A stretch of DNA of 64,000 nucleotides from an uncultured Gammaproteobacteria bacterium (GTDB lineage Bacteria > Patescibacteriota > Microgenomatia > CAZXEC01). The DNA lies in contig CAZXEC010000001.1 in the NCBI GenBank assembly GCA_964639595.1, positions 88,111 through 152,110 of the forward strand, in the 5' to 3' direction. The position numbers and the translations under genes are program-made. Within the stretch, counting starts at the first letter, position 1, and each line of letters starts with the position of its first letter. This document shows, piece by piece, positions 1-58,039 of this stretch. Under the pieces are notes generated by a model, which ran no database searches, had not been told where the DNA came from, and saw nothing but the letters and a program-made list of their open reading frames with translations.

Positions 1-945
1 TTTACGCCGGTTGAAAAAGCTCTAAAAGATGCCAAACTGGATGCCAAAAAAATTGACGAAGTGGTGTTGGTTGGCGGTATGACCAGAATGCCCAAGGTAC
101 AAGAAGCAGTCAAACAGTTTTTTGGCAAAGACCCTCACAAAGGCATCAATCCTGATGAAGTAGTGGCAATTGGAGCAGCTGTCCAAGCTGGGGTGTTAAT
201 GGGTGAAACCAAAGATGTAGTGCTGTTGGATGTGACTCCGTTGACATTAGGAATTGAAACTTTAGGTGGTGTGTCCACCCCATTGATTTCCAGAAATACT
301 ACCATTCCTACTTCCAAGTCGGAAATTTTCTCCACAGCTGCTGACAATCAGACCCAAGTGGAGATTAATGTTCTACAAGGTGAGCGACCAATGGCGGCTG
401 ATAATAAATCACTGGGCAGGTTTATCCTGGATGGTCTGCCGCCGGCTCCTCGGGGTCTGCCACAGGTGGAGGTAACCTTTGATATTGATGCTAATGGTAT
501 TTTGAATGTTTCTGCGGCCGATAAAGCCACCGGTAAAAAGCAAAAAATTACCATTACCGGTTCTACCGGTTTGTCGAAAGATGAGGTCGATCGTATGATC
601 AAAGAGGCAGAAGTCAGAGTTGAAGAAGATAAGAAGAAAAAAGAACAGGTAGAGGTCAAAAATCAAGCCGACTCTTTGGTGTTTACCGCCGAGAAAGCCT
701 TAAAAGATGCCGGAGACAAAGTCAGCGCTGATGTTAAAAGCGCGGTGGAAGAAAAAATAGCCGCTGTCAAGCAAGCTTTGCAAAAAGATGACGTTGACGA
801 CCTGCAGAAAAAAACCAAAGAATTATCAGAGGCTTTGTCACAAGTTGGCCAATCAATGTACAGTGCTCAAACACCAGAACAGCCGGAGGATAAGAAAAAG
901 GATGAAGCAGTAGAGGGTGAAGTGGTGGATGAGAAGAAAAATTAA
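1..945 (+). CDS. dnaK: Chaperone DnaK (Hsp70), C-terminal part; the gene starts upstream of the window
   Basis: The in-frame translation from nt 1 reads [14 protein letters not shown]...[17 protein letters not shown]...[29 protein letters not shown]...[16 protein letters not shown]. This is the typical Hsp70 substrate-binding and lid region. Stop at 943-945. Confidence 0.95.
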
Positions 946-980
946 TAATGATGAATGATCAGTGATGAATTAAGAATTAG

Positions 981-1859
981 GTGGAAGCAGAAATAAAATT
1001 TATGAACAAGGATGATTATTACAAACTGTTAGGTATTTCCAAAAACGCTTCTGCTGATGAGATCAAGAGAGCCTATCGAGTATTGGCACGCAAACATCAT
1101 CCCGACGTCGATAAATCTCCAGGCTCAACCGAAAAATTCAAAGCCATCAATGAAGCTTATGAAGTTTTATCTGACCCGCAAAAAAAGCAAGCCTATGATC
1201 AGTTTGGCCATGCTGCTTTTTCCCCTGGCGGCGGCTTTTCCCAAGGGCAAGGTACCAGTCCCTTTCCGGGAGGATTTGGTTTTTGGACCGGTGGTAGCGG
1301 CGGGCAGAGAGTTAATGTTGATTTTGATTTTGGCGGCTTTTCCGACCCATTTGAAATTTTTGAACAATTTTTCGGTCGAGGTTTTGGCCAGGGTTATGCC
1401 AGAACGCCGGTTTATCAATTGACTTTGACTTTTGATGAAGCAGTTGGCGGTGTTGAGAAAGAGTTAAGTATTAACGGGAAAAAAATTAAGGTAAAAATTC
1501 CAGCAGGAGTTGATGATGGGTCTAGAATTCGTTTTGGCGATTTTTATGTGTTGTGCCAGGTGGCACCCCACCATATTTTCCGCCGGGAAGGCTATGATAT
1601 TTATGTTGATAAAAAAATCAATGTGGCTCAAGCAGTGTTGGGCGATACTATCGAGGTGGAGACGATTGACGGTAAAGTCAAAATCAAAATACCAACAGGC
1701 ACACAGCCACAAACCGCCATCAGACTGCGTGGTAAGGGCGTGCCTCATCCCAGAAGAAATCTGCGCGGCGATCAGTATGTCCGCATTAACGTGGAAATTC
1801 CCCAAAAATTATCCGGGAATGAGAAAAGATTATATGAAGACTTAAAAAAACTACGGTAG
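981..1859 (+). CDS. dnaJ: DnaJ-family co-chaperone (J domain, G/F-rich region, C-terminal domains) with no CxxCxGxG zinc-finger repeats
   Basis: J domain [31 protein letters not shown] with the HPD motif. A Gly/Phe-rich linker follows. No Cys-rich repeats. Lies immediately downstream of dnaK. Confidence 0.85.
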
Positions 1860-1925
1860 TTTACCGAGGTTTTTAAATCATAAAGATTCGTTACCCTTCT
1901 TAGTATACAATAGCCCTTGTAAATC

Positions 1926-2333
1926 ATGATCAGGATCAGAATAGCCAAACCCAAAAACGTTAAGGCCATTTTTAAATTAGTCAACCAGGAAGCCAGACAC
2001 GGTAAAATTTTGCCCCGCACCAGAAGTGAGATTCAAAAAGAGATCTCTTCTTTTTTTGTCGCTGAAGAAAAAAAACAAATTGTGGGCTGTGTACAGTTGG
2101 ATGTTTACAGTAAGAAACTAGCGGAAATACGTAGTTTGGTGGTGGATAAAAATTTTCGCTCCAATGGTATCGGCTCTAGCCTATTGCGATTATGCCTCAA
2201 ACGTGCCAAACAAAAAAGGATCAGGGAAGTGTTGGCAGTCACCGCGGACATGCCGTATTTCAAAAAACATGGCTTCAAGACTGTCTTGGATGAGAAATTT
2301 GCCTTGTTTTGGCAAGGATCAAAAAGAAGATGA
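1926..2333 (+). CDS. GNAT-family N-acetyltransferase
   Basis: 135 aa. Acetyl-CoA-binding-like motif IRSLVVDKNFRSNGIGSSLL (R/Q-x-x-G-x-G/A pattern). Confidence 0.65.
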   Translation: MIRIRIAKPKNVKAIFKLVNQEARHGKILPRTRSEIQKEISSFFVAEEKKQIVGCVQLDVYSKKLAEIRSLVVDKNFRSNGIGSSLLRLCLKRAKQKRIREVLAVTADMPYFKKHGFKTVLDEKFALFWQGSKRR

Positions 2334-2435
2334 GTTTGACCTTAGGGCCTACATTATAGTAATATAGTGTTAGGTTAAAGACGTATGGGGTGGGTCACAT
2401 GAGCCCGCCCTTGTTGGTCTTAAGGGATAAAAACT

Positions 2436-3524
2436 ATGCCGCAAGCCAGAACTGAATTTGTAGCAGCGATAAATCAGCTCGCGTCCGAGCGTGGCTTGGA
2501 TGTCGATACTATTATGGAGGCTATTAAAGCCGCCATTGTGGCAGCCTACAAAAAAGATTATTCACCAGAAGCTGTTGATAATATAGAAGCTAAGTTAAAT
2601 CCACAATCAGGTGAGGTTTCCCTGACCCAAGCAGGCAAAAATATCACCCCAGCCGGTTTTGGCCGAATCGCTGCTCAAACTGCCAAGCAAGTAATATTAC
2701 AAAGAATCAGGGAGGCAGAAAAGAGTGCTATTCTAGCTGAATACGAAAAGAGGGTGGGGACAATTGTTAATGGCATGATTCAAAGGATGGAAGGCTATAA
2801 TATCTATGTTGATTTGGGTAAAACCGATGCCTTGATGCCTCCATCTGAACAAAGTCAGCAAGAACATTACCGTCCTAATCAAAGATTAACTGTCTATATT
2901 TCAGCAATTTCCCAAACCCCCCGCGGACCAGTGGTGGTGGTATCCCGAGCTGCCAACGAGTTGGTATCGTTGCTTTTTAAGCGGGAAGTGCCGGAAATTT
3001 CCTCTGGAGCAGTGGAAATTAAAGCCATTGCCAGGGAAGCCGGCGCTAGGACTAAGATTGCCGTTTTTTCCAATCAAGCTGGAGTTGATCCGATTGGATC
3101 TTGCGTTGGCCAAAAAGGCGTTAGGGTGCAAGCAGTAATATCCGAATTGGGCGATGAGAAAATTGACGTGATTGCCTATTCCCAAGATCTGGAAAAATTC
3201 ATCGAGGCAGCCCTCTCGCCAGCCAAAGAGCTAAGAGTCAAAATTGATAAAGAAACGCAAACTGCCCTGGTGACTGCTCCTGACGATCAGCTATCCTTGG
3301 CTATTGGTAAAGATGGACAAAATGTCAGGCTGGCCTCCAAATTAACTGGGTATAGAATAGATATTAGGGGTAAAAGCCAGTCAGAGGCAGAAGAAAAGGA
3401 AAAACTGGCGACACCAGATACAAAACCAGCTAAAGCTAAAGGAACGACTAAAGCCAAAAAAGCTGCCAAGAAATCAAAAGTTAAAAAAGCAAAAAAAGAG
3501 GTAGAAATAACAGCGACAGAATAA
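2436..3524 (+). CDS. nusA: Transcription termination/antitermination factor NusA with a lysine-rich C-terminal tail
   Basis: N-terminal NusA domain, S1-like region and KH regions (GSCVGQKGVRVQAV..., LAIGKDGQNVRLAS). Conserved nusA-infB neighbourhood. Confidence 0.9.
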   Translation: MPQARTEFVAAINQLASERGLDVDTIMEAIKAAIVAAYKKDYSPEAVDNIEAKLNPQSGEVSLTQAGKNITPAGFGRIAAQTAKQVILQRIREAEKSAILAEYEKRVGTIVNGMIQRMEGYNIYVDLGKTDALMPPSEQSQQEHYRPNQRLTVYISAISQTPRGPVVVVSRAANELVSLLFKREVPEISSGAVEIKAIAREAGARTKIAVFSNQAGVDPIGSCVGQKGVRVQAVISELGDEKIDVIAYSQDLEKFIEAALSPAKELRVKIDKETQTALVTAPDDQLSLAIGKDGQNVRLASKLTGYRIDIRGKSQSEAEEKEKLATPDTKPAKAKGTTKAKKAAKKSKVKKAKKEVEITATE

Positions 3525-3553
3525 CATGCCAATTAGTTCCATGGCGTTAAATT

Positions 3554-5062
3554 TTGCCGAATATCAACCAGAAAGAAGTATTTATTGTGGACAAGAAAAA
3601 CCTAACCAGTGCTTTACCTATTCGCCCGCCGGTTGTGACAATTTTAGGCCATGTTGATCATGGTAAAACCACACTGTTGGATGCTATTCGTACTGCTAAT
3701 GTGGCTGTCCGTGAGCATGGCGGTATTACTCAACATATCGGTGCTTATCAAATAATCTATAAAAATTCTCCTATTACTTTCATTGATACTCCCGGACACG
3801 CAGCTTTTTCTGCCATGCGCTCTCGAGGCGCCAGAGTTGCCGATATTATTATTTTGGTGGTGGCAGCAGATGACGGAGTAAAACCCCAAACTAAAGAAGC
3901 CATCAAAATTGCCAAAGAGACGAAAGTGCCAATTATTGTGGCTGCCAATAAAATGGATTTACCGGGTGCTAATTTGGAAAAATTAAAGCAGCAATTGTCC
4001 CAGGAAGGAGTGTTAGTAGAGGGATATGGTGGTGATGTGGTGATTTTGCCAATTTCTGCCAAAACCAAACAGGGTCTTGATGATCTGCTGGGAATGATTG
4101 TGTTAGTTGCCCAGATGCAAGAGCTAAAAGCTGATCCCAAAACTACTCCATCGGCAGTGGTGATCGAATCAAGATTGGACAGGAATCGAGGGCCAGTGGC
4201 CACGGTCATTGTTAAGGAAGGAACATTGAAAGCAGGAGATCGAATTGAGGTAGAGGGGATAACTGGGAAAATCAAAGCACTAATCGATGACCAAGGAAAA
4301 AATATCAAAGAAGCACAACCTGCCAAACCAGTGGAGATTTTAGGACTGTCTCAAGTTCCTTCGGTGGGGACAGTTATAGAAGAGGCCAAGGGTGTACCAG
4401 CAAAACGTCAGGTTAGTATACGGAGATCTCCGGCATATCAAATGCAGACTATTGATAGCTTGCCAACATTGCTAACACCAGTCAGCACAGATAAAAAATT
4501 ATCAGTAGTGTTAAAAGCAGATGTGGCAGGATCACTGGAGGCAATTGTCGAATCCATACCAAAAGAGATTAAGATTGTATCAATGGCCACTGGTAACATT
4601 ACCCCTTCTGATATTTTGCAAGCTTCCAGCGTGGGGGGCCTGGTAATTGGTTTTAATGTTGGCTTCACCACCGAAGCAGAAAGACTGGCGGTCCAAGAGA
4701 AAGTACTGGTAAAAACTTACCAAGTGATTTATGAATTATTAGAAGAGATTGGGGAAGTATCTAAATCATTATCACAACAAGTCGGTCGCGGTAAGATTAG
4801 TAACAGGGCAGATATTATTGCTGAGTTCGGCTCTGGTAAATCCAGAGTTGCCGGTTGTTTAGTGCAAGAAGGCAGCATGAAAACTGGTCAGACTGTTAAC
4901 CTAGTCAGAGACGGGCAAACCATAGGCCAAGCCAAAATTGTTTCACTGCGGCGAGGCAAAGAGACAGTAGATCAAGCCCCTAAAGGAATAGAATGTGGGA
5001 TGGTTATTGATCCGCAACTTGACTTTCAAGTGGGTGATCAGATAGAATCCCATAGTAAGTAA
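3554..5062 (+). CDS. infB: Translation initiation factor IF-2, minimal form (G domain onward, 502 aa; TTG start)
   Basis: [13 protein letters not shown]1 motif about 30 aa from the start, then DTPGH and NKMD. C-terminal IF2 beta-barrel domains. An in-frame stop 6 nt upstream bounds the ORF. Confidence 0.9.
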   Translation: MPNINQKEVFIVDKKNLTSALPIRPPVVTILGHVDHGKTTLLDAIRTANVAVREHGGITQHIGAYQIIYKNSPITFIDTPGHAAFSAMRSRGARVADIIILVVAADDGVKPQTKEAIKIAKETKVPIIVAANKMDLPGANLEKLKQQLSQEGVLVEGYGGDVVILPISAKTKQGLDDLLGMIVLVAQMQELKADPKTTPSAVVIESRLDRNRGPVATVIVKEGTLKAGDRIEVEGITGKIKALIDDQGKNIKEAQPAKPVEILGLSQVPSVGTVIEEAKGVPAKRQVSIRRSPAYQMQTIDSLPTLLTPVSTDKKLSVVLKADVAGSLEAIVESIPKEIKIVSMATGNITPSDILQASSVGGLVIGFNVGFTTEAERLAVQEKVLVKTYQVIYELLEEIGEVSKSLSQQVGRGKISNRADIIAEFGSGKSRVAGCLVQEGSMKTGQTVNLVRDGQTIGQAKIVSLRRGKETVDQAPKGIECGMVIDPQLDFQVGDQIESHSK

Positions 5063-5063
5063 T

Positions 5064-6101
5064 ATGCTTCCAGCGCACGAGATAACTAAAGTCAGAGAAC
5101 TGCTCCTGCAGTCAAAAAATATTTTGATTGCTCTGCCTCAAAATCCCAATGTTGACCAAACAGCCGCGGCATTATGTTTATATTTTGCCTTAAAGAAAGT
5201 TGGTAAAAGTGCCCAGGTGGTTTGTGCTGATCGCCCGACTGTAGAATTATCAGCAGTGATTGGAGCAGATTTGATTTCAGATCAGGTGAGCGGCGGCAAT
5301 CTGGTGATCTCTATTGATTACACAGAAGGATCGATAGAAAAGGTCAGCTATAATGTGGAAGGTGACAAATTTAATTTGGTGATCCATACCCCGCCGGACG
5401 CATCCCCGGTTACAACTGACAAAATCCGTTTCTCTTCCAGTGGTATGGTGGCAGATTGTATAGTTTGTATCGGGGCTTTGTCCCTGGATGATTTAGGGAA
5501 AATAGTCAAAGATAATCAAGCATCATTTTCGCAAGCAACCATTGTTAATATTGATAGACAAACAGCCAATACCCGCTATGGTTCAATCAATGTAATTGAT
5601 AAAATAGCCAGTTCTATCTCGGAGATGGTTTTTTTGATTTTGAGATCTTTATCGCAGGAGCCAGACCCGGATATTGTCAGAAATGTTTTCGCGGGAGTTT
5701 TGTCTGCCACTGATAATTTCCAGAGTCCCCATGTTTCGCCGGAAGCATTTGAGGCAGCTGCCTGGTGTCTGCGTCATGGAGCTAGACCTAAAAATAAACA
5801 ACCTGATCAGGCACTGCTATTAGAACAAAAGCCGACTGCCATAACTAAAGATGCCAGCGAATTGTTTACCAAAATTTTTGCCAAAGATGCAGCAGATGTT
5901 TTACCGGTCGTAGGCAATCCCGTGCCAAACCCCAAGCCAGACGTTATCAATGAGCAAAAAGTCGTCAATCAACAGCTGGCTAATTTTAAGATGAGTCAAG
6001 AGCTGGATGATATCGAAGATGATGTCCCAGACGATCCATTGATGGTTGATCCCAACTGGACCAAACCTCCCAAAGTTTACAGGGGCAGCTCGGAATCTTA
6101 A
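5064..6101 (+). CDS. NrnA-like DHH-family phosphoesterase homologue (catalytic motifs not evident)
   Basis: 345 aa in the conserved infB-(rbfA)-nrnA-rpsO-pnp position. The N-terminal ILIALPQNPNVDQTAAALCL resembles NrnA motif I (HxNPDGDAxGS) but has substitutions. No DHH triad was found. Confidence 0.35.
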   Translation: MLPAHEITKVRELLLQSKNILIALPQNPNVDQTAAALCLYFALKKVGKSAQVVCADRPTVELSAVIGADLISDQVSGGNLVISIDYTEGSIEKVSYNVEGDKFNLVIHTPPDASPVTTDKIRFSSSGMVADCIVCIGALSLDDLGKIVKDNQASFSQATIVNIDRQTANTRYGSINVIDKIASSISEMVFLILRSLSQEPDPDIVRNVFAGVLSATDNFQSPHVSPEAFEAAAWCLRHGARPKNKQPDQALLLEQKPTAITKDASELFTKIFAKDAADVLPVVGNPVPNPKPDVINEQKVVNQQLANFKMSQELDDIEDDVPDDPLMVDPNWTKPPKVYRGSSES

Positions 6102-6158
6102 TGATTGCTAAAGTAAGATGATTTTGCTATAATAGACTTCAACTTAAAATAGAAGTGT

Positions 6159-6509
6159 ATGCCAAAGAAGAAAAAGGCAGTAGGAAAGAAGACAAAAACT
6201 ACTGCTAAATCCACTAAGAGTCAACCTAAAAAAATCAAACAGGCTATCCCTGTGGCTGGCAAAGCCAAAATTATTAAAGAATATGCCATACACAGTCATG
6301 ATACAGGCTCTCCTGAAGTGCAAGTCGCACTGCTGTCTTCCAGGATTGGTAATTTAACGAATCACCTGAAAGATCATCCCAAGGATGTACATTCCAGAAG
6401 AGGCTTGTTGTCAATGGTTAATAAACGTCGTAAACTATTGTTGTATTTAATGAAAAAAAATGATGAAAGGTATAAAGTAGTTATAGGCAAATTAGGACTG
6501 AGTAAATAG
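6159..6509 (+). CDS. rpsO: 30S ribosomal protein S15 with a lysine-rich N-terminal extension
   Basis: C-terminal two-thirds is [47 protein letters not shown], the S15 signature. A TGcTATAAT extended -10 lies at about 6123-6131. Confidence 0.9.
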
Positions 6510-6601
6510 TAGTAATTTTCCTTGAAAAAAGGACTTCCTCATAAAAAGAGAAAGAACTACTCGGCAAAAACCCTAACGAAAATTTGTTGAAAAGTTGTAC
6601 T

Positions 6602-8764
6602 ATGGAAAAAATAGTAAAAGAGCTAGATTTAGTTGGTAAAAAATTAAGCCTAGAAACCGGCCGTTTTGTTAAACATGCCAACGGTTCAGTCCTGGCGCGT
6701 ATCGGCGATACAGTAGTTTTGGCTACCGTGGTCATGTCAGTCCCCCGCCAAGATTTAGACTACTTTCCCCTATCAGTAGATTACGAGGAAAGACTTTATG
6801 CAGGAGGTAGGATTTCTTCTTCTAAATTTATCAAACGAGAAAATCGCCCTTCAGAGGCGGCAATCTTAGCAGGCAGATTAATTGATAGGTCAATTAGACC
6901 CCTTTTCCCCAAAGATCTTAACAATGAAGTTCAAGTAATTACTACGGTATTGTCGTTTGATGGAGCTAATGATGCGGATATGGTGGCATTATTGGGAGTG
7001 TCGGCAGCCTTGGCTATTTCTGATATTCCTTGGAAAGGCCCTATTAGTGCAGTGCGGGTCGGCTTGGTTGAAGGAGCGTATATTTTTTATCCCACCAGAC
7101 AAGAATTAGCCAACTCACAGCTTGATTTGGTTGTATCAGGAGGAAAAGACGGAGTAGTTATGGTTGAGGCTGGGGCTCGTGAACTGGCTGAGCAAGAAAC
7201 AATAACAGCCATTACCCAGGGTCAGGAATTTAATTTGAAACTGGTTTCTTTTATTGAAGATTTTGTCAAGGAAGCTGGAAAGTCCAAGGCAGCCTATACT
7301 ACCAAGACCCTTGACCCTGAACAGGAAAAAGCAGTCAGAGACTATATAGAAAAAGAATTTATTCCGCAGTTGTCTGACCCAGAAGTAGCGCAAGACGAGC
7401 AATTTGCCCCGATGTGTTATCAGAAACTAGAAGAAGTTTTTAGTGAAACAATAGCCAAGGGACAGTTAGTCCATCTGTTGGATGATTGTGTGAAGAAGTT
7501 TATTAGAAAACAAATCCTGGAGAAAGGTAAAAGGATTGATGGCCGCAAAAATAATCAGATTCGGCCTTTAACAATTGAAGTAGAAGTTTTACCAAGAACT
7601 CATGGGTCTGCACATTTTAAACGCGGTGATACCCAAATCTTGACTATTGTCACATTAGGCTCTCCTTCACTGGAGCAATTAATTGAAGGGATGAGGGGTG
7701 AAGAAACCAAAAGATACATGCATCATTATAATTTTCCACCTTTTGCCACTGGTGAGGTTAAAAGAATTGGGACAACCGGTAGGCGAGAAATCGGTCACGG
7801 TGCATTAGCAGAAAGAGCTTTAATTCCTGTTCTGCCACCAGAGGAAAAATTCCCTTATGCTATTAGGGTAGTGTCTGAAGTGTTAACCTCTGCCGGTTCT
7901 ACTTCGATGGGTTCTGTCTGCGGTTCTACTTTGGCATTAATGGATGCCGGGGTACCGATTACTGCGCCAGTGGCTGGTATTGCCATGGGGCTTGTGACCG
8001 ATGCGGCGTCTGATAAATACGTAGTTTTGACAGACATTGCTTACGCAGAAGATGCTGGTGGTGATATGGACTTCAAAGTAGCAGGAACAGAGAAAGGCAT
8101 CACTGCTTTGCAGATGGACGTTAAACTAACAGGGATTCCAGCCAAAGTTTTGGCGCAAGCCATTGCTGAAGCACGGGAAGGTAGAATGTTTATCTTGGGT
8201 AAGATGAAAGAAGCTTTGCCGGAAATCAGAGGAGAAGTTTCCCCTCATGCCCCCAGGATACAAATGATTAGTATTGACCCAGCGAAAATTGGTCAAGTGA
8301 TCGGTTCCGGTGGTAAAACCATAAACCAGATTATAGCAACCACCGGAGTCGCCATTGATATTGAAGATGATGGGAAGATTACTATTACCTCCAAAGATCA
8401 AACAGCCGCCCAGAAGGCAATTGGCATCATTGAAGGTTTAACCCATGAGGTAAAACCAGGCGAAATATATGAAGGCGAAGTAAAAAGAATCATGACTTTC
8501 GGGGCTTTTGTGGAGATATTACCAAGCAAAGAAGGTCTAGTTCACATTTCACAACTGTCTCCTGTTAGGGTAGAAAGGGTAGAGGACGTGGTACAGATTG
8601 GGCAGAAGGTTAGAGTGAGAGTTACTGAGATAGACCCGCAAGGTCGAATTAACTTATCTATGAAGTTTGGTCAAGATGCAGAGGATAATCCCAGAAGAGA
8701 TGATCATCGTTCCATCATCAGAGGCGACTACAGCGGGGAGAGGTTCAGACGGAAGAGATTTTAG
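6602..8764 (+). CDS. pnp: Polynucleotide phosphorylase (PNPase)
   Basis: Two RNase PH-like domains, then a KH domain (IGQVIGSGGKTINQI) and an S1 domain. The ATG at 6602 was chosen over the upstream TTG at 6584. Confidence 0.93.
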   Translation: MEKIVKELDLVGKKLSLETGRFVKHANGSVLARIGDTVVLATVVMSVPRQDLDYFPLSVDYEERLYAGGRISSSKFIKRENRPSEAAILAGRLIDRSIRPLFPKDLNNEVQVITTVLSFDGANDADMVALLGVSAALAISDIPWKGPISAVRVGLVEGAYIFYPTRQELANSQLDLVVSGGKDGVVMVEAGARELAEQETITAITQGQEFNLKLVSFIEDFVKEAGKSKAAYTTKTLDPEQEKAVRDYIEKEFIPQLSDPEVAQDEQFAPMCYQKLEEVFSETIAKGQLVHLLDDCVKKFIRKQILEKGKRIDGRKNNQIRPLTIEVEVLPRTHGSAHFKRGDTQILTIVTLGSPSLEQLIEGMRGEETKRYMHHYNFPPFATGEVKRIGTTGRREIGHGALAERALIPVLPPEEKFPYAIRVVSEVLTSAGSTSMGSVCGSTLALMDAGVPITAPVAGIAMGLVTDAASDKYVVLTDIAYAEDAGGDMDFKVAGTEKGITALQMDVKLTGIPAKVLAQAIAEAREGRMFILGKMKEALPEIRGEVSPHAPRIQMISIDPAKIGQVIGSGGKTINQIIATTGVAIDIEDDGKITITSKDQTAAQKAIGIIEGLTHEVKPGEIYEGEVKRIMTFGAFVEILPSKEGLVHISQLSPVRVERVEDVVQIGQKVRVRVTEIDPQGRINLSMKFGQDAEDNPRRDDHRSIIRGDYSGERFRRKRF

Positions 8765-50396: not shown

Positions 50397-50816
50397 ATGC
50401 AATCAACAGCCAGCGTTAAAGCCAAAGATATTAAAAGACAGTGGCAACTAATTGATGCCAGAGACCAAATTTTGGGCAGGATGGCTACCAGGATTGCCAC
50501 GCTTTTGCTGGGTAAGGGCAAGCCGTATTTTGTTCCCCATATGGATTGTGGTGATTATGTAGTAGTGGTCAATGCCGGCAAGGTTAAAACCACTGGTCGT
50601 AAACAAGAGCAAAAACAGTACAGTCGGTATTCAGGTTATCCGGGCGGACTCAAAAAAACATCCCTGGCTATCTTGAGAGAGAAAAAACCAACAGAGGTAA
50701 TCAAACATGCAGTGCGGGGAATGATGCCGCACAATAAATTAGGCCGGCAAAGTATTAAAAAATTATTTGTTTTTGAGGGGGGAAATCATCCCTATCAAGG
50801 TCAGGTGAAAAGCTAA
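50397..50816 (+). CDS. rplM: 50S ribosomal protein L13
   Basis: WQLIDARDQILGRMATRIATLLLGK. Confidence 0.93.
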   Translation: MQSTASVKAKDIKRQWQLIDARDQILGRMATRIATLLLGKGKPYFVPHMDCGDYVVVVNAGKVKTTGRKQEQKQYSRYSGYPGGLKKTSLAILREKKPTEVIKHAVRGMMPHNKLGRQSIKKLFVFEGGNHPYQGQVKS

Positions 50817-51268
50817 TGCCCAGAAAGAAAAAAGCAGCGCCGGTTATCAAGGAAGTAGTAAGTGAGAAACCTAAAGAGCAGGTAGTCTATCAAGCGGTGG
50901 GCCGCCGCAAATCGGCAGTGGCTCAAGCCAAACTTTTTGCCGGCGCCGGTAACTTAACGATTAACAGTCACCCCATATTGCAATATTTTTCCGGCCAGGT
51001 ATCAAAGCTGGCTTGGCAAAAACCTTTTCAAACAGTGGGAGCATTAGGTAAATTTGACGGTACGATTAAAGTTTACGGCTCCGGCAAAAGCGGCCAACTG
51101 GTGGCAGTTACTCATGCCATCTCCCGCGCCCTGCTGCAAGTCAATCCGGATTGGAGAAAGCCTCTCAAAAAACAAGGACTTTTGACCCGTGACCCCAGAG
51201 TTAGGGAAAGACGCAAATACGGCAACGCCCAAAAAGCGAGAGCGAAAAAGCAGTCACCCAAACGATAA
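50816..51268 (+). CDS. rpsI: 30S ribosomal protein S9 with an N-terminal extension
   Basis: YQAVGRRKSAVAQAKL...RERRKYG. Confidence 0.93.
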   Translation: MPRKKKAAPVIKEVVSEKPKEQVVYQAVGRRKSAVAQAKLFAGAGNLTINSHPILQYFSGQVSKLAWQKPFQTVGALGKFDGTIKVYGSGKSGQLVAVTHAISRALLQVNPDWRKPLKKQGLLTRDPRVRERRKYGNAQKARAKKQSPKR

Positions 51269-51422
51269 ATATTTTCGCCCGAAGTCCTGCTAAATCACTG
51301 CACATAACAAATTTTAAACGGGGAATTATACCTAAAGGCGAGCGAGGGCAACGGAAGCCGCTTCCTCGCCGATTCAAGGAGTGAGATATTCGTATTAAAT
51401 AAACACATCCTAATATTAGCTA

Positions 51423-51451
51423 TTGACAAGCTTGGCAGTTTATGCTATACT
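51423..51451 (+). promoter_or_regulatory. Near-consensus sigma70 promoter driving the island operon (TTGACA-17 nt-TATACT)
   Basis: TTGACA 51423-51428, 17-nt spacer, TATACT 51446-51451. Lies about 30 nt upstream of the first island ORF. Confidence 0.6.
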
Positions 51452-51480
51452 AGTCTCTGTTTTTAGATAAAATCAAAAAA

Positions 51481-51696
51481 ATGTCAGAGACACGTAAAGA
51501 AAAATTTGTAAGGTTAGCAACTTATCGGACTAATGTTGTGTTAGAGAAGCTCCGCATCCTCGGCAACCTTTCCAACAAAGCTAACTATGAATACTCCGAA
51601 GAGGAAATAAATAAAATCTTCTATGCTATTGATTCACAACTCCGGATCATAAAAGCTCGTTTTAGTGGTAAAAGGAAAAGAGAGTTTAAATTATGA
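51481..51696 (+). CDS. Hypothetical small basic protein (71 aa), first gene of the island operon
   Basis: No recognisable motif. Overlaps the next ORF by 4 nt (ATGA). Confidence 0.45.
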   Translation: MSETRKEKFVRLATYRTNVVLEKLRILGNLSNKANYEYSEEEINKIFYAIDSQLRIIKARFSGKRKREFKL

Positions 51697-52262
51697 AAAG
51701 AACCAGAAATACATTAGATGATTTACTCTTGCTTTGCATTAGTGATATTTTGGGGAAAAAACAAAAGTGTTCCTACGGAAATCTTGTTAAAAAGGCCTCT
51801 ACGAAATATCCCGAAGTTTTTAGTTTGTCAGATTATCCCAAATGGCCAGATTCTCTTAAGTTGGATCGGCCACTAAGGCAATTAAGAAGTGAAAGATTGA
51901 TAACAGGTAGCCCGACAACGTTTTATTCGTTGACTTCTCTGGGTAAAGAAAAAGTCAGATTTTTAAACAACAAACGGTTTCCGGTAAAAGACAACACTAG
52001 TAGGCCAACAAGAAGCCCCTCTTTGACATTTCTAAAAGAACTAGAAAATAGTGATGACTTTAAAGATTTTGCTTCAAACAAAGAAGACTTCAAGCCAAAT
52101 AATATGAAAATAAGAGCTCTGACAAGATTTACTCTAGAGACGCCTAAGAAAGTTATTTTAGACCACTTGCTCTTTTTAAAAAAAACTGCTCATCGAGAAA
52201 AAAAGGGAACTTTGGAAGATTTTTTAATCACTTACATAAATTACATCGAAAGAATTAAGTAA
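51693..52262 (+). CDS. Hypothetical protein with a putative N-terminal winged-helix domain (189 aa)
   Basis: Helix-turn-helix-like N-terminus with a wing-like ...LRSERLITGSPTTFYSLTSLGKEKV. Only 2 nt separate it from the downstream ATPase gene. The fold assignment is inference. Confidence 0.45.
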   Translation: MKRTRNTLDDLLLLCISDILGKKQKCSYGNLVKKASTKYPEVFSLSDYPKWPDSLKLDRPLRQLRSERLITGSPTTFYSLTSLGKEKVRFLNNKRFPVKDNTSRPTRSPSLTFLKELENSDDFKDFASNKEDFKPNNMKIRALTRFTLETPKKVILDHLLFLKKTAHREKKGTLEDFLITYINYIERIK

Positions 52263-52264
52263 AT

Positions 52265-54163
52265 ATGGATTTTCAAAGCGCAGAGTCGGGGCAACTGTCA
52301 GTTAACGAAGGAAGGTTAGTTAAGTCTCTTGCAGATAGTACAGTTAGAGGCATAATGGACGCAGTTGTAGAACTAGTAACGAATTGCGACGATAGCTATG
52401 TACGTCAAGAGCAAGAAGGTAGTAATTCTTCTGGTAGGATAGACCTCTATATTGATCGAGGTGCTGGTGGACATTGTAAAGAATTGAGGGTAATCGATGA
52501 GGCGGCCGGCATGGATTACCAAGCATTACGAAGAGCAATAGAATTTAGCGGGGAAACCAGCGGTTTTAAAGAAGGAAGAAGTGTCAGGGGTTTTTTTGGA
52601 CGCGGCCTAAAAGAATCCATACTCGCTTTGGGGATAGGGACGATATTTACCTTAAAAAAAGGTGTTCTTAGCAGAGCAATTATTTCTTATGACGAAAAGG
52701 AAAGGCAATCAAAATACGACCTATCAGTTCCTGTACAGAACCTTTCACAGGAAGAATTAATTAATTATGGTTTTTCGGGCAATTCAGGGACTTTAGTAAC
52801 AATTAAGATAACAAACACAAAGAAAGATTACATCCCAGGAAGAAATCATATAAAAGAACAGTTCCTAAAACACTATGCTTTCAGAGATATTAATTCTTCC
52901 ACAAAAAGAGCAGTGTATTTACACTTCTCGGATGTAGAAAGTAAAGATAAATATAGCTCAAATATCCCATTGGTTTATAAATGGCCGGAAGGGAAATTAG
53001 TTTTCGATAAGGATATGAAAATACTTAATTCAGTAGCTCATTTTAAAATTTACGAGAGCTTAGAACAGTTGCAAACTCCTAAAAATCCTACTGGTGAAGC
53101 AGGTCTATTGATAAAGACCGAAGGGGCGATTCTGGACAACCAATTATTTGGCTTCGAGACTGATCCAAACGGTCTATTTTTCTTCGGAGAAATAACTGCT
53201 CCGGGGATAGCCCAAGCAATTAGAAGCGGTGATGAATCTATCGTGGATACCAACAGAACAGGTTTAGCTCGGAACCACCCGTATAATAAAGAGCTTGAAA
53301 ATATAAGTAAGGAAATTCTAGGAAAACTTATTCAGGAAAGAAAAGAAAGACTAAAATCAGAGAAAAAAGCTGAGTTGGCAGAACCTATAAATAACCTTTT
53401 TAATAAATTATGCAAAGAATTATCAGATCTAGCAAAAGATGAACTCGAGGATAAGGAACCTGGTCCAGGAGAAGTCAAAGCATTTATGATCAAGCCTCTT
53501 TTTGCAAACATAGACCCTGAATCACCTAGGACACTTTCCGTATATTGTCCAAAGTATTTATCAGAAGATGAAGGAACAAAGGTTGTAAATCTTTTGAGTT
53601 CTAACGGGAATATAAAATTATCTAATGAATCCATAATTCTTGAACAATACAAAAGAGACCCAGATGTACTAAAGTCAACTTTTAAATTAAATGGAGAAAA
53701 CGAAGGCGAAGTGGCTCTAATAACGGCCACATTGGGACGAGTTACCGCCAATAGTGAAGTAAGGGTGCATAAATTAGGACACATAGGTCCAGGCTCAGAA
53801 AAACCTCCGACTGGTTCAGGAGGAGGAGTTTTTAGAAAGATAGAGCCTGCTTATGATGAAAGCCCAATACAAAGATTTGAATATGTTTCTGGAGGAATAA
53901 TAAAAGTATATATAAAGTTTCCTGGAGTTGGAGACATTTTAGGAGAAAATTTTGAGACTATAGAAACTCAGGGTGCAAGAGTCGCATTATCAGAGATTGT
54001 TATAGAAGCGTTTTCAAGACATATTTCCAGACAACGAGTTGGAAAATATGTAGAGGAGCAGATAGACCCTTTTACATCAGAGATGGATAGATTAAGAAAG
54101 AAAGCCACAAAGACTGTTTATAATATCCTTCTCCGAGCAGATTTGAGAGAATTATTAAATTAG
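52265..54163 (+). CDS. GHKL-superfamily (Bergerat-fold; MutL/MORC/histidine-kinase-like) ATPase, 632 aa, with a long domain of unknown function
   Basis: N-box ELVTNCDDS, G1-box RVIDEAAGMD, G2-box GFFGRGLKESILALGIGTIFT, all within the first 130 aa. No Hsp90 middle-domain signature. No HK dimerisation/His box. Confidence 0.75.
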   Translation: MDFQSAESGQLSVNEGRLVKSLADSTVRGIMDAVVELVTNCDDSYVRQEQEGSNSSGRIDLYIDRGAGGHCKELRVIDEAAGMDYQALRRAIEFSGETSGFKEGRSVRGFFGRGLKESILALGIGTIFTLKKGVLSRAIISYDEKERQSKYDLSVPVQNLSQEELINYGFSGNSGTLVTIKITNTKKDYIPGRNHIKEQFLKHYAFRDINSSTKRAVYLHFSDVESKDKYSSNIPLVYKWPEGKLVFDKDMKILNSVAHFKIYESLEQLQTPKNPTGEAGLLIKTEGAILDNQLFGFETDPNGLFFFGEITAPGIAQAIRSGDESIVDTNRTGLARNHPYNKELENISKEILGKLIQERKERLKSEKKAELAEPINNLFNKLCKELSDLAKDELEDKEPGPGEVKAFMIKPLFANIDPESPRTLSVYCPKYLSEDEGTKVVNLLSSNGNIKLSNESIILEQYKRDPDVLKSTFKLNGENEGEVALITATLGRVTANSEVRVHKLGHIGPGSEKPPTGSGGGVFRKIEPAYDESPIQRFEYVSGGIIKVYIKFPGVGDILGENFETIETQGARVALSEIVIEAFSRHISRQRVGKYVEEQIDPFTSEMDRLRKKATKTVYNILLRADLRELLN

Positions 54164-54175
54164 CGTCAACAACGA

Positions 54176-54409
54176 ATGTTTCAAGCGAAGAGGGCAAAAA
54201 AAATTACAATCGGTCAGGATGGAATCTATCTACTTAGACTAGCGCTTGAATCTTTTGAAGTCATTACCGAAGGTTTCAATCGGCAGGTCAATAAATTCCC
54301 AAGTATGCAATCTTCAATAAGGGCAAGAAAGATAATTCCAAAACTTAACAAGGCGATAATCGAAATACGGACAATTATTAAAAGACTTGAGAGAAATCTT
54401 AACTTTTAG
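54176..54409 (+). CDS. Hypothetical small protein (77 aa), last gene of the island + operon
   Basis: 12 nt downstream of the ATPase gene. Basic and helical. No recognisable motif. Confidence 0.4.
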   Translation: MFQAKRAKKITIGQDGIYLLRLALESFEVITEGFNRQVNKFPSMQSSIRARKIIPKLNKAIIEIRTIIKRLERNLNF

Positions 54410-54430
54410 GCTTAAAGATACCTATTATAT

Positions 54431-54487
54431 AAAAAGTTCTTTCCTCCTTCGCTAGGGCTACGGAAAGACAGGTAAAATTTTTGCGTG
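54431..54487. repeat. Copy A of an imperfect direct repeat of about 50 bp (AAAAGTTCTTT...TAAAATTTTTGCGTG)
   Basis: Shares an 11-nt 5' core and a 14-15-nt 3' core with copy B at 55829-55878. Located in the convergent intergenic gap. Confidence 0.5.
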
Positions 54488-54490
54488 ATT

Positions 54491-55114
54491 TTATCCTCTT
54501 TTAATCTTTTTCCAAAATCCGTCTGGAACGACCACTAATTTTAGAAAACTTAACCTTACCAGGAGACTATCAGCTGTAACTTCAAATTCTTGAGCCAGAT
54601 CGGGAAAAGTATCTGGAAGATCAAAAACCGAACAGGGGGTTGGAATACGATTTCGGCTCATAAATTGATCCCATCTTTCCTTCAAGACTTTTTCCGGCAT
54701 TAATACCATACTAGCAAAAGTTCTGGCTTGTCTTTCAATATAGTCGAATAACTTATTATCTAATTTCTCCTGCCATGTTATATATGGTTCTAAGCCTTTT
54801 GGGCCATCCTTGCTGTACCATTCTTTGTGAAGATATAAATGACCGATTTCCTCAGCAATAGTAAATCTTATTCGTTCCGGTTGTTTGGTATACATTCCTT
54901 CGTCTATCACGATAGAATCGAAGTTTTGGTTAATAAATGCATTTACTCCAAAATTTTTGATCAATCCACTAATTAAGATAATCCTAAGTCCTAATTTTAA
55001 TTCAGCTATATCCTCAATAGGTACTGGAAGAGTTAAAGAAGGATGACAATTTTCTAAAAATAAATTCGCTTGATTCTTAACGTCCTGAATATTTATCTCG
55101 TTGGGATTTTTCAT
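54491..55114 (-). CDS. ImmA/IrrE-family (M78-like) metallopeptidase-domain protein, second gene of the HTH-peptidase pair
   Basis: RFTIAEEIGHLYLH aligns to the ImmA/IrrE HEXXH helix, but the first His is replaced by Glu. Directly abuts the upstream HTH gene. Confidence 0.65.
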   Translation of the reverse strand: MKNPNEINIQDVKNQANLFLENCHPSLTLPVPIEDIAELKLGLRIILISGLIKNFGVNAFINQNFDSIVIDEGMYTKQPERIRFTIAEEIGHLYLHKEWYSKDGPKGLEPYITWQEKLDNKLFDYIERQARTFASMVLMPEKVLKERWDQFMSRNRIPTPCSVFDLPDTFPDLAQEFEVTADSLLVRLSFLKLVVVPDGFWKKIKRG

Positions 55115-55501
55115 TCATTTGTCTAGTAGAGTTATTAACTGCTCCAGTTTTTTTCTATCCAGTTTTTTATTTCTCATGGTTCTGAAGAATGCTGGTAGCA
55201 GATCATTTATATTTTCTTGATTTTTTATATCTGTGGGGATTTGTCCTTTGGCTGTATGTGCCAAATCATGAAATTTAATCCATTCTTCAGTGTCACGTTT
55301 TATTTTCAGAGCAGTTGCATATCCTGCTAATTTTTCATCATCTAGCGTAGGCGGCAAGATATTTCTTTCAAGTCTACTGATATTTCCTGGATCATAACCA
55401 TATCTTTCGCAAAACGCACGAAGGGAAAATCCAAGTTCTATTCTCTTTACTCTGAAGAAATCACCGAAATTTTGATTAGAAGCATCTTGAATTTTATTCA
55501 T
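55115..55501 (-). CDS. XRE-family helix-turn-helix transcriptional regulator
   Basis: FRVKRIELGFSLRAFCERYGYDPGNISRLERN, a Cro/C1-type HTH. ATG at 55501 chosen. The track ORF extends to a GTG at 55525, which lies inside a palindrome. Confidence 0.7.
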   Translation of the reverse strand: MNKIQDASNQNFGDFFRVKRIELGFSLRAFCERYGYDPGNISRLERNILPPTLDDEKLAGYATALKIKRDTEEWIKFHDLAHTAKGQIPTDIKNQENINDLLPAFFRTMRNKKLDRKKLEQLITLLDK

Positions 55502-55502
55502 A

Positions 55503-55556
55503 GTGTTGTAATAATAATACAACACTATTCTAGTATAGACTTTGACAGGTTGTCAA
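55503..55556. promoter_or_regulatory. Two operator-like inverted repeats in the divergent HTH/HNH promoter region
   Basis: GTGTTGTA-ATAATAA-TACAACAC (55503-55525). TTGACA-GGT-TGTCAA (55542-55556), the latter carrying a -35-like TTGACA. Confidence 0.55.
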
Positions 55557-55569
55557 GTTTTGAAAGGAG

Positions 55570-55812
55570 ATGAAGGTAAAAAATATAATGAATTATAAAT
55601 GTAGATATTGTGGATGGACAGGTCCAAGAAAAGATTTCGAGATTGACCATGTAATCCCAATTGTTAGGTCAATTTTACAGAATATCTTACAGCCAGCGCT
55701 AGATTTAATTTGTTCTGGTTGCAACAGACAAAAAGGCAGAATGACAGGAGCAGGATATATGGAGATTGCTAAATTCATTCGAAGCAAATTTAGGACCAAT
55801 TATCTAAAATGA
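55570..55812 (+). CDS. Small standalone HNH endonuclease (80 aa)
   Basis: CRYCGW...FEIDHVIP...N...CSGCNRQKG, the HNH beta-beta-alpha-Me with two CxxC pairs. Confidence 0.75.
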   Translation: MKVKNIMNYKCRYCGWTGPRKDFEIDHVIPIVRSILQNILQPALDLICSGCNRQKGRMTGAGYMEIAKFIRSKFRTNYLK

Positions 55813-55828
55813 AAAGATTGAATTTTTG

Positions 55829-55878
55829 AAAAGTTCTTTGCCTCGCCTTTGGCGAGGGGCGTGTTAAATTTTTGCGTG
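55829..55878. repeat. Copy B of the roughly 50-bp imperfect direct repeat; contains the CCTCGCC-TTT-GGCGAGG hairpin
   Basis: AAAAGTTCTTTG CCTCGCCTTTGGCGAGG GGCGTGTTAAATTTTTGCGTG. Confidence 0.5.
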
Positions 55879-55909
55879 TCAAATAATTGGCCTACCGAAT
55901 TTTATCAAA

Positions 55910-55943
55910 TTAACTAATCTCACCTGTTAACTAATCTCACCTG
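55910..55943. repeat. Perfect tandem duplication of the 17-mer TTAACTAATCTCACCTG
   Basis: 55910-55926 and 55927-55943 are identical. Confidence 0.8.
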
Positions 55944-55968
55944 GGAAGTGGATTAGCTTGACACCGAT

Positions 55969-56814
55969 TTAAGAAAATTTCAAAATTTGATCAAGTTTGT
56001 TGTTAGGAAATAAGTCTTTTGGATAAATAGAGATAACATTTAACCTTTGTTGTTGCCAGAACTTTTTCTTTCTTGCAATCAAAGCGTCGTATGCTTTAAC
56101 CTCTCCTTTTAATCCAAAAAATTCAATAAGACAGCCATTAACCTTAAAATCGGCAGTCATATTATCCTTACCGTAAGGAATATTTCTATCGTGGAGAATT
56201 TTTCTAGCATAAAACCAATCATCAATAATCTTCTCAGTTAATGAGTCGCATTTGTGTCCATCATTAGCAATATACTTTTTGGCATACTTAACCGGGTTAG
56301 GATTAAAACCTGCAGCTATGATAGCAGCATTCCAGCTACCAAAGCGAAGGCGTGCTGCTTTGTGTTGGCTAAATTCTCTTTTAAGAGGAATCCTTCCAGT
56401 CTTTTTATAGAACGATTGAATTTGCTCAATAATTATTTCTTTTACTATAATTTGACCAGCATTTTTACACGCCTTTGAGCAATACTTCTCTCGACCTTTA
56501 AATTCTTTATTGCAATAACCACACATTTTAATAACAGCATGCCTTTTGGGAAATCTTGAGTTATTTATTGTCGCTGCGCAAGAGCGAGAGCAATAGTAAG
56601 ATCTGGCATTCTTGAGTTCCTTCAATTGCCGTTTGAAGATCTTGCCACAAGAAGGATTAGTGCAGATAAGCGCTTTTTGTTTATTTCTTGCCTTGCTTAT
56701 ACATTCTAGAGAGCAATATATATTCCAGTCAAACTTTTTACCTTCATTGATTCTCCCTTGACTACGAAGAATAATTTTTTTACATCGATCACATTTAACA
56801 GGCAAAAGTTCCAT
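55969..56814 (-). CDS. Multi-zinc-ribbon protein with a C-terminal Vsr/DUF559-like PD-(D/E)xK endonuclease domain
   Basis: Six or more CxxC pairs in the N-terminal half. C-terminus DSLTEKIIDDWF...ADFKVNGCLIEFFGLKG...YDALIARKKKFW...LNVISIY matches the Vsr/DUF559 core. Start codon is 2 nt from the tRNA-like 3' end. Confidence 0.6.
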   Translation of the reverse strand: MELLPVKCDRCKKIILRSQGRINEGKKFDWNIYCSLECISKARNKQKALICTNPSCGKIFKRQLKELKNARSYYCSRSCAATINNSRFPKRHAVIKMCGYCNKEFKGREKYCSKACKNAGQIIVKEIIIEQIQSFYKKTGRIPLKREFSQHKAARLRFGSWNAAIIAAGFNPNPVKYAKKYIANDGHKCDSLTEKIIDDWFYARKILHDRNIPYGKDNMTADFKVNGCLIEFFGLKGEVKAYDALIARKKKFWQQQRLNVISIYPKDLFPNNKLDQILKFS

Positions 56815-56815
56815 G

Positions 56816-56889
56816 TCGGGGGAACTGGTTCCGCCCCAGCGACCTCTCGCACCCCATGCGAGTGCTCTAACTATCTGAGCTACCCCCCG
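56816..56889 (-). tRNA. tRNA-Pro(GGG)-like gene, 74 nt, CCA not encoded, atypical D- and T-loops
   Basis: Minus-strand RNA is CGGGGGG-TA-GCTC-AGATAGTTA-GAGC-A-CTCGC-ATGGGGT-GCGAG-AGGTC-GCTGG-GGCGGAA-CCAGT-TCCCCCG-A. C1:G72 pair and A73 fit tRNA-Pro. Anticodon loop has U33, GGG, G37. The D-loop lacks GG and the T-loop is GGCGGAA, not TTCRANY. Confidence 0.55.
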
Positions 56890-56980
56890 AATATTGTTAT
56901 TTTACCATAAAAGAAGCCTGTTAAATACCAGTTGATTTTTCACCATCAGATGATATACTGCCCCTAAAAGAAAAAAACTT

Positions 56981-58039
<1,059 letters not shown>

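Follow-up and report, generated by a model that had tools for sequence, protein, structure and literature searches.

What kind of DNA separates the ribosomal protein operon rplQ-rplM-rpsI from recA in the genome of an uncultured bacterium: one genomic island inserted at a tRNA gene, or a set of elements with separate histories? The locus lies in a 64,000-nt stretch of DNA (contig CAZXEC010000001.1; hereafter the window), in which the two conserved flanks enclose an accessory segment of 5,547 nt at positions 51269-56815. The host was assigned to Candidatus Daviesbacteria (Microgenomates, candidate phyla radiation, CPR), as the RecA encoded in the window is 100% identical to a public protein so named. 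An initial annotation, made from the sequence alone, had described a non-core block between the flanks and interpreted it as an accessory island targeted to a tRNA gene. The block was indeed found to hold eight non-core genes. Its accessory, horizontally acquired nature also stood, given its composition and a copy of its 189-aa/GHKL genes with 93% DNA identity elsewhere, while the idea of a single tRNA-targeted element did not, as the hallmarks of such an element were missing. We favor, with a probability of about 0.6, the reading that the segment is a mosaic of at least three independently acquired conflict or selfish modules, located at a variable spot beside tRNA-Pro(GGG)-recA-recX-rny, and not one element.

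The first of these modules (51.4-54.2 kb) would be an autonomous cassette of translationally coupled genes under a promoter of their own, encoding a small helical protein of 71 aa, a winged-helix protein of 189 aa and a GHKL ATPase of 632 aa. The second (54.5-55.8 kb) would consist of an XRE-type helix-turn-helix (HTH) repressor and an ImmA-like partner, divergent from an HNH endonuclease gene that the pair would make inducible. In the third (56.0-56.9 kb), the gene of a 281-aa zinc-ribbon nuclease abuts the 3′ end of a phage-type tRNA and is probably co-transcribed from the tRNA promoter. A small, horizontally acquired islet is ordinary genome plasticity; the unusual parts of this one are the winged-helix/MORC-like cassette and the non-canonical tRNA-Pro.

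Distribution of the GHKL cassette and composition of the segment

Homologues of the GHKL ATPase were searched for among 5.8 billion proteins, and a metagenome scan returned 241 relatives. Full-length homologues (~630 aa) were found in Chloroflexi, KSB1, Gottesmanbacteria and one metagenome-assembled genome of Bathyarchaeia, with public names limited to "hypothetical" or "ATP-binding". Gene linkage was counted in 80 metagenome loci. The gene for the 189-aa protein was immediately 5′ of the ATPase gene in 74 of them, and the winged-helix protein is the obligate partner of the ATPase. The five other genes of the island, encoding a 77-aa protein, the ImmA homologue, the HTH protein, the HNH endonuclease and the 281-aa nuclease, were never found beside the cassette outside this genome's own assemblies. 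Because the pair is maintained without these five genes, the segment is better explained as a mosaic than as a single element. Judged from these sequence relationships, the cassette is a separate, autonomous mobile module. Its first gene is variable: the 71-aa family was detected at nine of the 80 loci (tblastn), and unrelated small open reading frames (ORFs), for example of zinc-ribbon type, took the slot elsewhere.

The location of the cassette also differed among loci. It was co-oriented inside the rplK-rplA pair in four cases (L135, L136, L138 and L142; L numbers denote the loci and contigs compared), and at L101 its neighbours were atpG on one side and, on the other, a gene homologous to the alpha/beta subunits of ATP synthase. 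At L170 (~900-8300), as also at L169, the first gene belonged to the 71-aa family and the cassette was flanked by two large, oppositely oriented serine-recombinase genes, each encoding 490 aa. The bracketed cassette of L170 could be an invertible or transposable unit.

A near-identical cassette was found on a Logan contig (L173), whose ATPase shares 96.7% amino acid and 93.3% nucleotide identity with that of the window and lies in an unrelated context, with an intein/LAGLIDADG protein and an SppA-like protease as neighbours. DNA homology extends from position 51765, within the 189-aa gene, exactly to the stop codon of the ATPase gene, and the small first protein of the L173 cassette is only 48% identical to the 71-aa protein. 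This comparison points to recent transfer and to recombination inside the cassette. The intein/LAGLIDADG protein of L173 is a 432-aa product (198-1496) with both intein-splicing and LAGLIDADG domains, encoded 5′ of the cassette.

The base composition of the segment deviates from that of its surroundings. Its GC content is 35.6% versus 42.7% in the remainder of the window, which makes it the lowest-GC 5.5-kb interval of the 64 kb, 4.2 standard deviations (SD) under the mean of 5.5-kb windows. All eight genes have GC fractions of 0.33-0.37, compared with 0.428 ± 0.030 for the 61 other ORFs. The A/T-richness and the enrichment of AGA and AAA codons remarked on in the initial annotation were confirmed by windowed GC and codon counts, with frequencies per 1000 codons of 34.6 versus 22.4 for AGA and 69.9 versus 58.1 for AAA.

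To place the segment among relatives, nine RecA loci from seven Daviesbacteria lineages were compared, the nearest RecA proteins being 75-77% identical to that of the window. When species genomes were scanned with RecA as anchor, most hits came from distant phyla, and L001 and L002 alone were informative. In six lineages (L089, L090, L092, L175, L177 and L179), a canonical tRNA-Pro(GGG) gene was located just upstream of recA, in either orientation and sometimes with one small gene (NUDIX or HicB) before recA. Beyond the tRNA, gene content differed from lineage to lineage, and relative to L175, L092 has ~4 kb of additional genes at that spot, including HicAB. As far as these sequences go, the tRNA-Pro/recA junction is a conserved landmark beside a variable region. 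This supports the term accessory for the segment, and not the insertion of one element between adjacent core loci. The initial annotation had proposed to look for rpsI directly before tRNA-Pro-recA; in the five relatives read 3.7-10 kb upstream of recA (L089, L090, L092, L175 and L177), rpsI was nowhere in that span. In the distant Patescibacteria locus L001 (3718-6463), rpsI is ~1.2 kb from recA-recX and convergent with it; tRNA-Pro(GGG) lies 2.3 kb upstream of recA there, and a co-oriented 358-aa ORF begins 27 nt after the tRNA. In one Daviesbacteria relative (L090 and L091, ~12.3-13.7 kb), a reverse transcriptase gene (RVT_1) is present between recX and rny, with a bAvd gene added in L091, and this locus looks like a diversity-generating retroelement.

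Taken together, the deviant composition, the 93% copy in an unrelated context, the spread of the cassette across phyla and the differing genes beside the tRNA of relatives indicate horizontal acquisition. Several points weigh against the mosaic reading. An empty site was not seen, and the nearest RecA is 77% identical. The low GC is uniform over all eight genes, which also fits a single donor or a long residence in the genome. The GHKL pair has neither a PADLOC match nor an effector domain, viral contigs do not carry it, and housekeeping genes neighbour it as often as defence genes do. Finally, the HExxH motif of the ImmA homologue is without its first His, which makes a proteolytic switch doubtful.

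Non-canonical tRNA-Pro(GGG) and the possibility of a phage remnant

The tRNA-like gene at the right edge of the segment, whose 3′ end the initial annotation had seen to face the island, proved to be a perfect cloverleaf on the minus strand. The predicted tRNA is of normal size, with stems of 7/4/5/5 bp, the anticodon GGG, a C1-G72 pair and A73. An extended -10 element (TGnTAAAAT) lies 9 nt upstream. The loops are non-canonical: the D-loop AGAUAGUUA has no GG (no G18G19), and the T-loop reads GGCGGAA. The canonical T-loop is UUCRAAU (T54-Psi55-C56, A58). Nucleotides G72, A73, G35 and G36 are all present in the sequence; these are identity nucleotides for prolyl-tRNA synthetase under E. coli rules. 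CCU and CCC together account for 45% of the Pro codons in core genes.

This tRNA, referred to here as type B, was recognized by neither ARAGORN nor Rfam RF00005, even under relaxed conditions (E ≤ 10, 151-nt search). As controls in Rfam, the canonical tRNA-Pro of L089 scored 56 bits and a variant copy in L176 43 bits. Masking of the window tRNA by the tools was considered and rejected, as the identical copy of L085 was missed as well. The L176 copy, a type-B tRNA located upstream of recA (1539-1611, plus strand), is also missed by ARAGORN. It differs from the window tRNA by six compensatory base-pair changes, while the anticodon and T-loop are identical and the D-loop shows two differences. 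When the tRNA-Pro(GGG) sequences of eight Daviesbacteria were aligned, 168 of 168 pair cells were paired and 12 of the 21 pairs were changed on both sides. Given the intact stems and the covariation, type B is a conserved structured gene and not a decayed one. A tRNA pseudogene was rejected for these reasons, together with the retained loops and the occurrence of the same loop type in phage tRNAs. Between L176 and L092, whose tRNA is canonical, RecA identity is 89%, and the type-B tRNA is therefore patchily distributed. DNA homology between L176 and L092 starts only downstream of the tRNA.

Pattern scans of IMG/VR revealed about a dozen viral tRNAs (L210, L211, L216, L234, L238, L248, L254, L259, L262, L282, L283 and L285) in which the T-arm GGGGCGGAACC is part of a cloverleaf. 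Their specificities include Phe, Asn, CAU, Pro-UGG, Val, Ile and His; none of the D-loops contains GG, and several of these tRNAs are inside phage tRNA arrays. ARAGORN misses part of this class (L234, L238 and L282, in addition to L176 and the window copy). The viral contigs L187 and L197 carry the D-arm of the window tRNA unchanged, and viral tRNAs with this exact D-arm have T-loops with G55. More generally, the D-arm pattern TAGCTCAGATAG[TC]NAGAGC occurs in phage tRNAs of L183, L187, L197, L200, L201 and L202. In these, a D-loop with G-Y replacing G18G19 is mostly combined with T-loops of the form NGC[GA]AAN (G55, not U55), a pairing that hints at a compensated alternative elbow contact.

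Our literature searches found no description of this GGCGGAA class. Among known tRNAs, G18G19 and T-Psi-C are missing from tRNA-Pyl and from mitochondrial tRNAs of type II (review PMC7609411). Like these, the window tRNA has lost the elbow nucleotides and kept the cloverleaf stems; unlike them, it has a normal-size 7/4/5/5 cloverleaf with a sense anticodon, resides in a bacterial chromosome, and carries a T-loop heptamer common to phage tRNAs.

From its loops, the window tRNA looks phage-like and is not of the native Daviesbacteria type, and it may be cargo rather than target. One may go further and suppose that it works as a tRNA-Pro(GGG), belongs to a phage-borne structural class with an alternative elbow, arrived on mobile DNA, displaced the native copy upstream of recA and now serves as 5′ transcript partner of the nuclease gene, a tentative scenario that we regard as unlikely. 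If it holds, such tRNAs would be systematically missed by standard finders, inflating the apparent tRNA gaps in CPR genomes. A tRNA class that is common to phages and cells and escapes ARAGORN and Rfam bears on the tRNA inventories of CPR bacteria and on the entry of phage tRNAs into hosts.

These observations also suggest an alternative origin for the right part of the segment, in which the HTH/ImmA pair, the HNH gene, the 281-aa nuclease gene and the tRNA are together what is left of a phage or similar element whose own tRNA-Pro(GGG) replaced the native one, and the GHKL cassette came separately. The alternative draws on the GGCGGAA T-loop and GG-less D-loop, shared with phage tRNAs for seven or more specificities (some of them in arrays), and on the D-arm shared exactly with two viral contigs. 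The canonical tRNA at this site in six other Daviesbacteria, the contrast between L176 and L092, and the matches of the HTH, ImmA and HNH proteins to phage families in PHROGs are also in its favor. However, the segment has no phage structural or replication genes, and none of its proteins had a homologue in 105 viral loci. The variant tRNA of L176 adjoins no island gene, and with two cellular examples only, an old polymorphism within Daviesbacteria is possible. We therefore consider this origin somewhat unlikely. A phage origin of the GHKL cassette or of the 281-aa gene was examined separately and rejected: IMG/VR contained no relative of either, and the 281-aa protein had one weak phage match.

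Possible function of the GHKL cassette

The ATP-binding motifs of the 632-aa protein are intact. The three Bergerat-fold motifs that were sought (ExxxNxxD, DxGxG and GxxGxG) were all present, and E36, N40, D43, D78, G82 and G109-G114 were invariant in an alignment of 30 sequences. An S5-fold transducer domain is present behind the GHKL domain. The fold of the protein matches MORC3, MORC2 and SMCHD1, which were the best structural matches, and also MutL; a BFVD search yielded nothing beyond generic GHKL proteins, rIIA, Hsp90 and topoisomerases among them. The 189-aa partner also resembles kleisin-type winged-helix proteins, MukF and JetA, as well as TubR. None of the first four proteins of the island matched a PADLOC model, and neither the 189-aa nor the 632-aa protein was matched in NCBIfam or PHROGs, the generic HATPase_c_3 domain of the ATPase aside. 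No nuclease or toxin domain was found in the cassette by profile and fold searches. At none of the other loci was a homologue of the fourth protein, of 77 aa, encoded behind the ATPase.

The proposed mechanism draws on analogy to MORC, MutL and Topo VI-B and on comparative work on paraMORC proteins (PMC2292703): the winged-helix protein would bind DNA and recruit or gate the ATPase. The ATPase would dimerise via its ATP-bound N-terminal domains, as those three do, and thereby clamp or compact DNA. The likely purpose would be restriction or silencing of incoming DNA, for which the variable small protein would provide a specificity or modulator subunit. Related MORC and paraMORC families have been placed in restriction-modification contexts (Iyer, Abhiman & Aravind 2008, PMC2292703). 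The cassette shares with prokaryotic members of these families an N-terminal Bergerat ATPase with an S5-type transducer, a sporadic spread over lineages, and loci that adjoin methylases and restriction genes. It differs in that its constant partner is a winged-helix protein and not an SF2 helicase, methylase or nuclease, and in that the C-terminal half of the ATPase consists of a coiled coil, an Ig-like domain and helices. Neither an SF2 helicase nor a DNA methylase or restriction nuclease is present in the window, and the ATPase could not be assigned to any of paraMORC1-5.

Two more defence systems were compared. Shedu type I-D/paraMORC3 proteins such as VcSduA (PMC12137116) likewise contain a GHKL ATPase and are predicted to form a DNA-clamping dimer. 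They carry, however, a C-terminal DUF4263 PD-(D/E)xK nuclease; the cassette lacks this domain as well as any Shedu profile match, and its identity with Shedu/paraMORC3 was rejected. Identity with CapK/CapS (PMC13373217) was also rejected, as that pair consists of a small anti-sigma-type kinase and a STAS protein.

The winged-helix/GHKL pair might instead be a selfish or chromosome-organising module (DNA-compacting or segregation-like) or a regulator, and not a defence system, in which case its location in core operons would reflect either function or hitch-hiking on strong promoters. The co-oriented position inside rplK-rplA and ATP-synthase operons, and directly after rpsI in the window, is consistent with this proposal, as are the absence of a nuclease or toxin domain and the likeness of the partner to MukF, JetA and TubR. 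The neighbour census points in the same direction: of 144 protein clusters around the 80 loci, few were methylases, ResIII or restriction enzymes, and there was no dominant defence partner. At some loci, the cassette was near N6/N4 and C5 methylases, DndB, BrxC/D, MvaI/BcnI, ResIII and PIN proteins, and at others it was amid plain housekeeping genes. However, the recurrence of methylases, DndB, BrxC, restriction enzymes and PIN proteins as neighbours, the patchy distribution across domains of life with near-identical copies in differing contexts, the variable first gene, and the restriction-modification contexts of MORC and paraMORC families (PMC2292703) all speak against a non-defence role. 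Such a role is unlikely in our assessment, although it is a live alternative. The pair is a widespread module able to sit inside ribosomal-protein and ATP-synthase operons, and it stands out as a clean candidate for a new system of DNA-directed conflict or silencing with kinship to eukaryotic MORCs.

Relation to tRNA-targeted islands

Genomic islands linked to tRNA genes resemble the segment in two respects: DNA of foreign composition adjoins the 3′ end of a tRNA gene, and related genomes carry other content at that tRNA. The segment differs from them by its lack of an integrase and of a tRNA-derived direct repeat, by its mosaic content and by its non-native tRNA. The initial annotation had correctly stated that no integrase is present: tyrosine and serine recombinase families gave no match to the eight ORFs. 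One of the explanations that it offered, an old or decayed insertion, was not supported, because the eight ORFs give a coding density of 90%, with a largest gap of 212 nt, and leave no space for an integrase remnant. The weak repeat of the tRNA end that it proposed at 51319-51335 scored at the level of shuffled sequences. Four tRNA-Pro sequences, in both orientations, were locally aligned to the left junction (51269-51480), and all scores were at or below the shuffle mean +2 SD. A repeat search likewise detected no tRNA-derived repeat at the left border; apart from short chance pairs it gave the 17-nt tandem duplication listed in Table 1, the sole notable repeat of the segment.

It is thus quite improbable that one element integrated at the 3′ end of tRNA-Pro and later lost its integrase and far attachment site by decay, even though a tRNA-shaped gene faces the island with its 3′ end, low GC is uniform across the eight genes, and the HTH/ImmA and HNH genes are phage-like. 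In addition to the missing integrase, pseudogene space and border repeat, the GHKL cassette travels alone elsewhere, and the tRNA of relatives occurs in either orientation. Moreover, the whole tRNA, including its 5′ half, is non-native, which a crossover in the 3′ end does not explain.

The remaining alternative, ancestral vertical DNA with low GC from weak expression or relaxed constraint, would account for the lack of a mobility gene and for the same sequence in every sample of this organism, but it is essentially refuted, because none of the eight genes was found near recA in the seven other Daviesbacteria lineages read (eight loci), where the initial annotation would have expected an ancestral region to recur, and because the cassette occurs at 93% nucleotide identity elsewhere as well as in other phyla and archaea.

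Gene content of the segment and its assembly

The features of the segment are listed in Table 1. The labels given in the initial annotation (GHKL ATPase, HTH/ImmA pair, HNH and zinc-ribbon nuclease) agreed with the profile matches. A sigma-70-like promoter (51423-51451; TTGACA-17-TATACT with TG) precedes the cassette in the left junction, and the stop of the 71-aa gene overlaps the start of the 189-aa gene by 4 nt.

Table 1 Features of the accessory segment and its flanks, with positions in the window
Feature	Position	Strand	Basis or remark
rpsI, final gene of ribosomal-protein operon rplQ-rplM-rpsI; left core flank	50816-51268	+	ORF; PF00380 on identical public protein
Left junction	51269-51480	+	GC-rich hairpin ~51336-51370, then promoter-like site
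71-aa helical protein, variable accessory first gene of cassette	51481-51696	+	ORF; without Pfam or PDB match
189-aa protein: N-terminal winged-helix DNA-binding domain, flexible linker, helical C-terminal domain	51693-52262	+	Fold comparison
632-aa MORC-like GHKL+S5 ATPase, then coiled coil, Ig-like beta domain and C-terminal helices	52265-54163	+	HATPase_c_3 (PF13589)
77-aa orphan ORF, outside conserved cassette	54176-54409	+	ORF downstream of ATPase
ImmA/IrrE-type M78 peptidase homologue	54491-55114	-	PF06114 1.4e-13; PADLOC capP 1.8e-15; PHROGs metallo-protease
XRE-type HTH repressor-like protein	55115-55525	-	HTH_31, HTH_3; PHROGs repressors
Back-to-back promoter-like sites, each 11/12 positions	55527-55589		Minus side towards HTH/ImmA, plus side towards HNH
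80-aa stand-alone HNH endonuclease	55570-55812	+	PF01844 2.4e-8
17-nt unit TTAACTAATCTCACCTG in two copies, exact tandem	55910-55943		Just 3′ of 281-aa gene stop; repeat search
281-aa protein: six Cys pairs (zinc ribbons), homing-endonuclease-associated HNH_repeat, Vsr-like nuclease domain	55969-56814	-	PF18780 5e-11
Non-canonical tRNA-Pro(GGG), type B	56816-56890	-	Perfect cloverleaf, 3′ end towards island
recA, right core flank; block recA-recX-rny-HU conserved in relatives	56981-58039	+	ORF; Pfam labels on identical public contigs

The ImmR/ImmA pairs of ICEBs1 and phages and the CapH/CapP pairs of CBASS and other defence operons likewise place XRE-HTH and M78 genes side by side in one orientation. 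The capP match of the ImmA homologue and the back-to-back promoter-like sites facing the neighbouring gene are further points of likeness to these pairs. Unlike in both systems, the divergent gene here encodes merely the 80-aa HNH protein, and residues 88-92 of the peptidase read EEIGH in the translation. The zinc motif of the M78 family is HExxH, and the missing first His is the first zinc ligand. The ImmA homologue may thus be an inactive or altered peptidase. No link between the pair and the GHKL cassette was seen in other genomes. In the public annotation (gene call in L088), the HTH gene starts at the ATG at 55501 and encodes 128 aa. The HNH protein matched 12 PHROGs families; ten of these carry the name HNH endonuclease and the other two the name endonuclease VII.

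The family of the 281-aa protein is large, with 2051 cluster representatives reaching E ≤ 0.001. Six Cys pairs are conserved across it, and D184, H186, E193, D197, H207, D221, E230 and K248 are invariant in the C-terminal domain; from its sequence, this domain is read as Vsr-like. Residues 176-278 matched positions 176-277 of the 289-position PADLOC profile of the candidate system PDC-S69 (7.3e-11). The C-terminal 100 residues match PDC-S69 and the overall length is similar, while the zinc ribbons and the HNH_repeat are outside the matched part. To our knowledge, no experimental function has been described for PDC-S69. PDB sequence searches with the 71-aa and 281-aa proteins gave nothing useful. 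The ATG of the 281-aa gene, at 56814, is 2 nt past the discriminator base of the tRNA (56816) on the same strand, and from this spacing the -10 element of the tRNA would also drive the nuclease gene.

DNA identical to the segment is present in GCA_016198195.1 and in several Logan assemblies. Other contigs span the left junction (n = 4) and the right junction (n = 1), and the segment is therefore no assembly artefact. GCA_016198195.1 is broken at 55314-55498, where two contigs share 185 nt within the HTH gene; the window assembly is unbroken there. Among the Logan contigs, which come from several samples, L082 ends at 51729 and L084 at 51750, L086 begins at 56926, and L088 covers exactly 51200-56844. 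The breaks cluster near 51729-51765, where the homology to the L173 cassette starts, and at both island borders, and they may reflect related cassettes or alternative alleles within the same communities. In the 17-nt duplication next to the 281-aa gene, the second copy of TTAACTAATCTCACCTG can base-pair with GTGGATTAG, which follows it.

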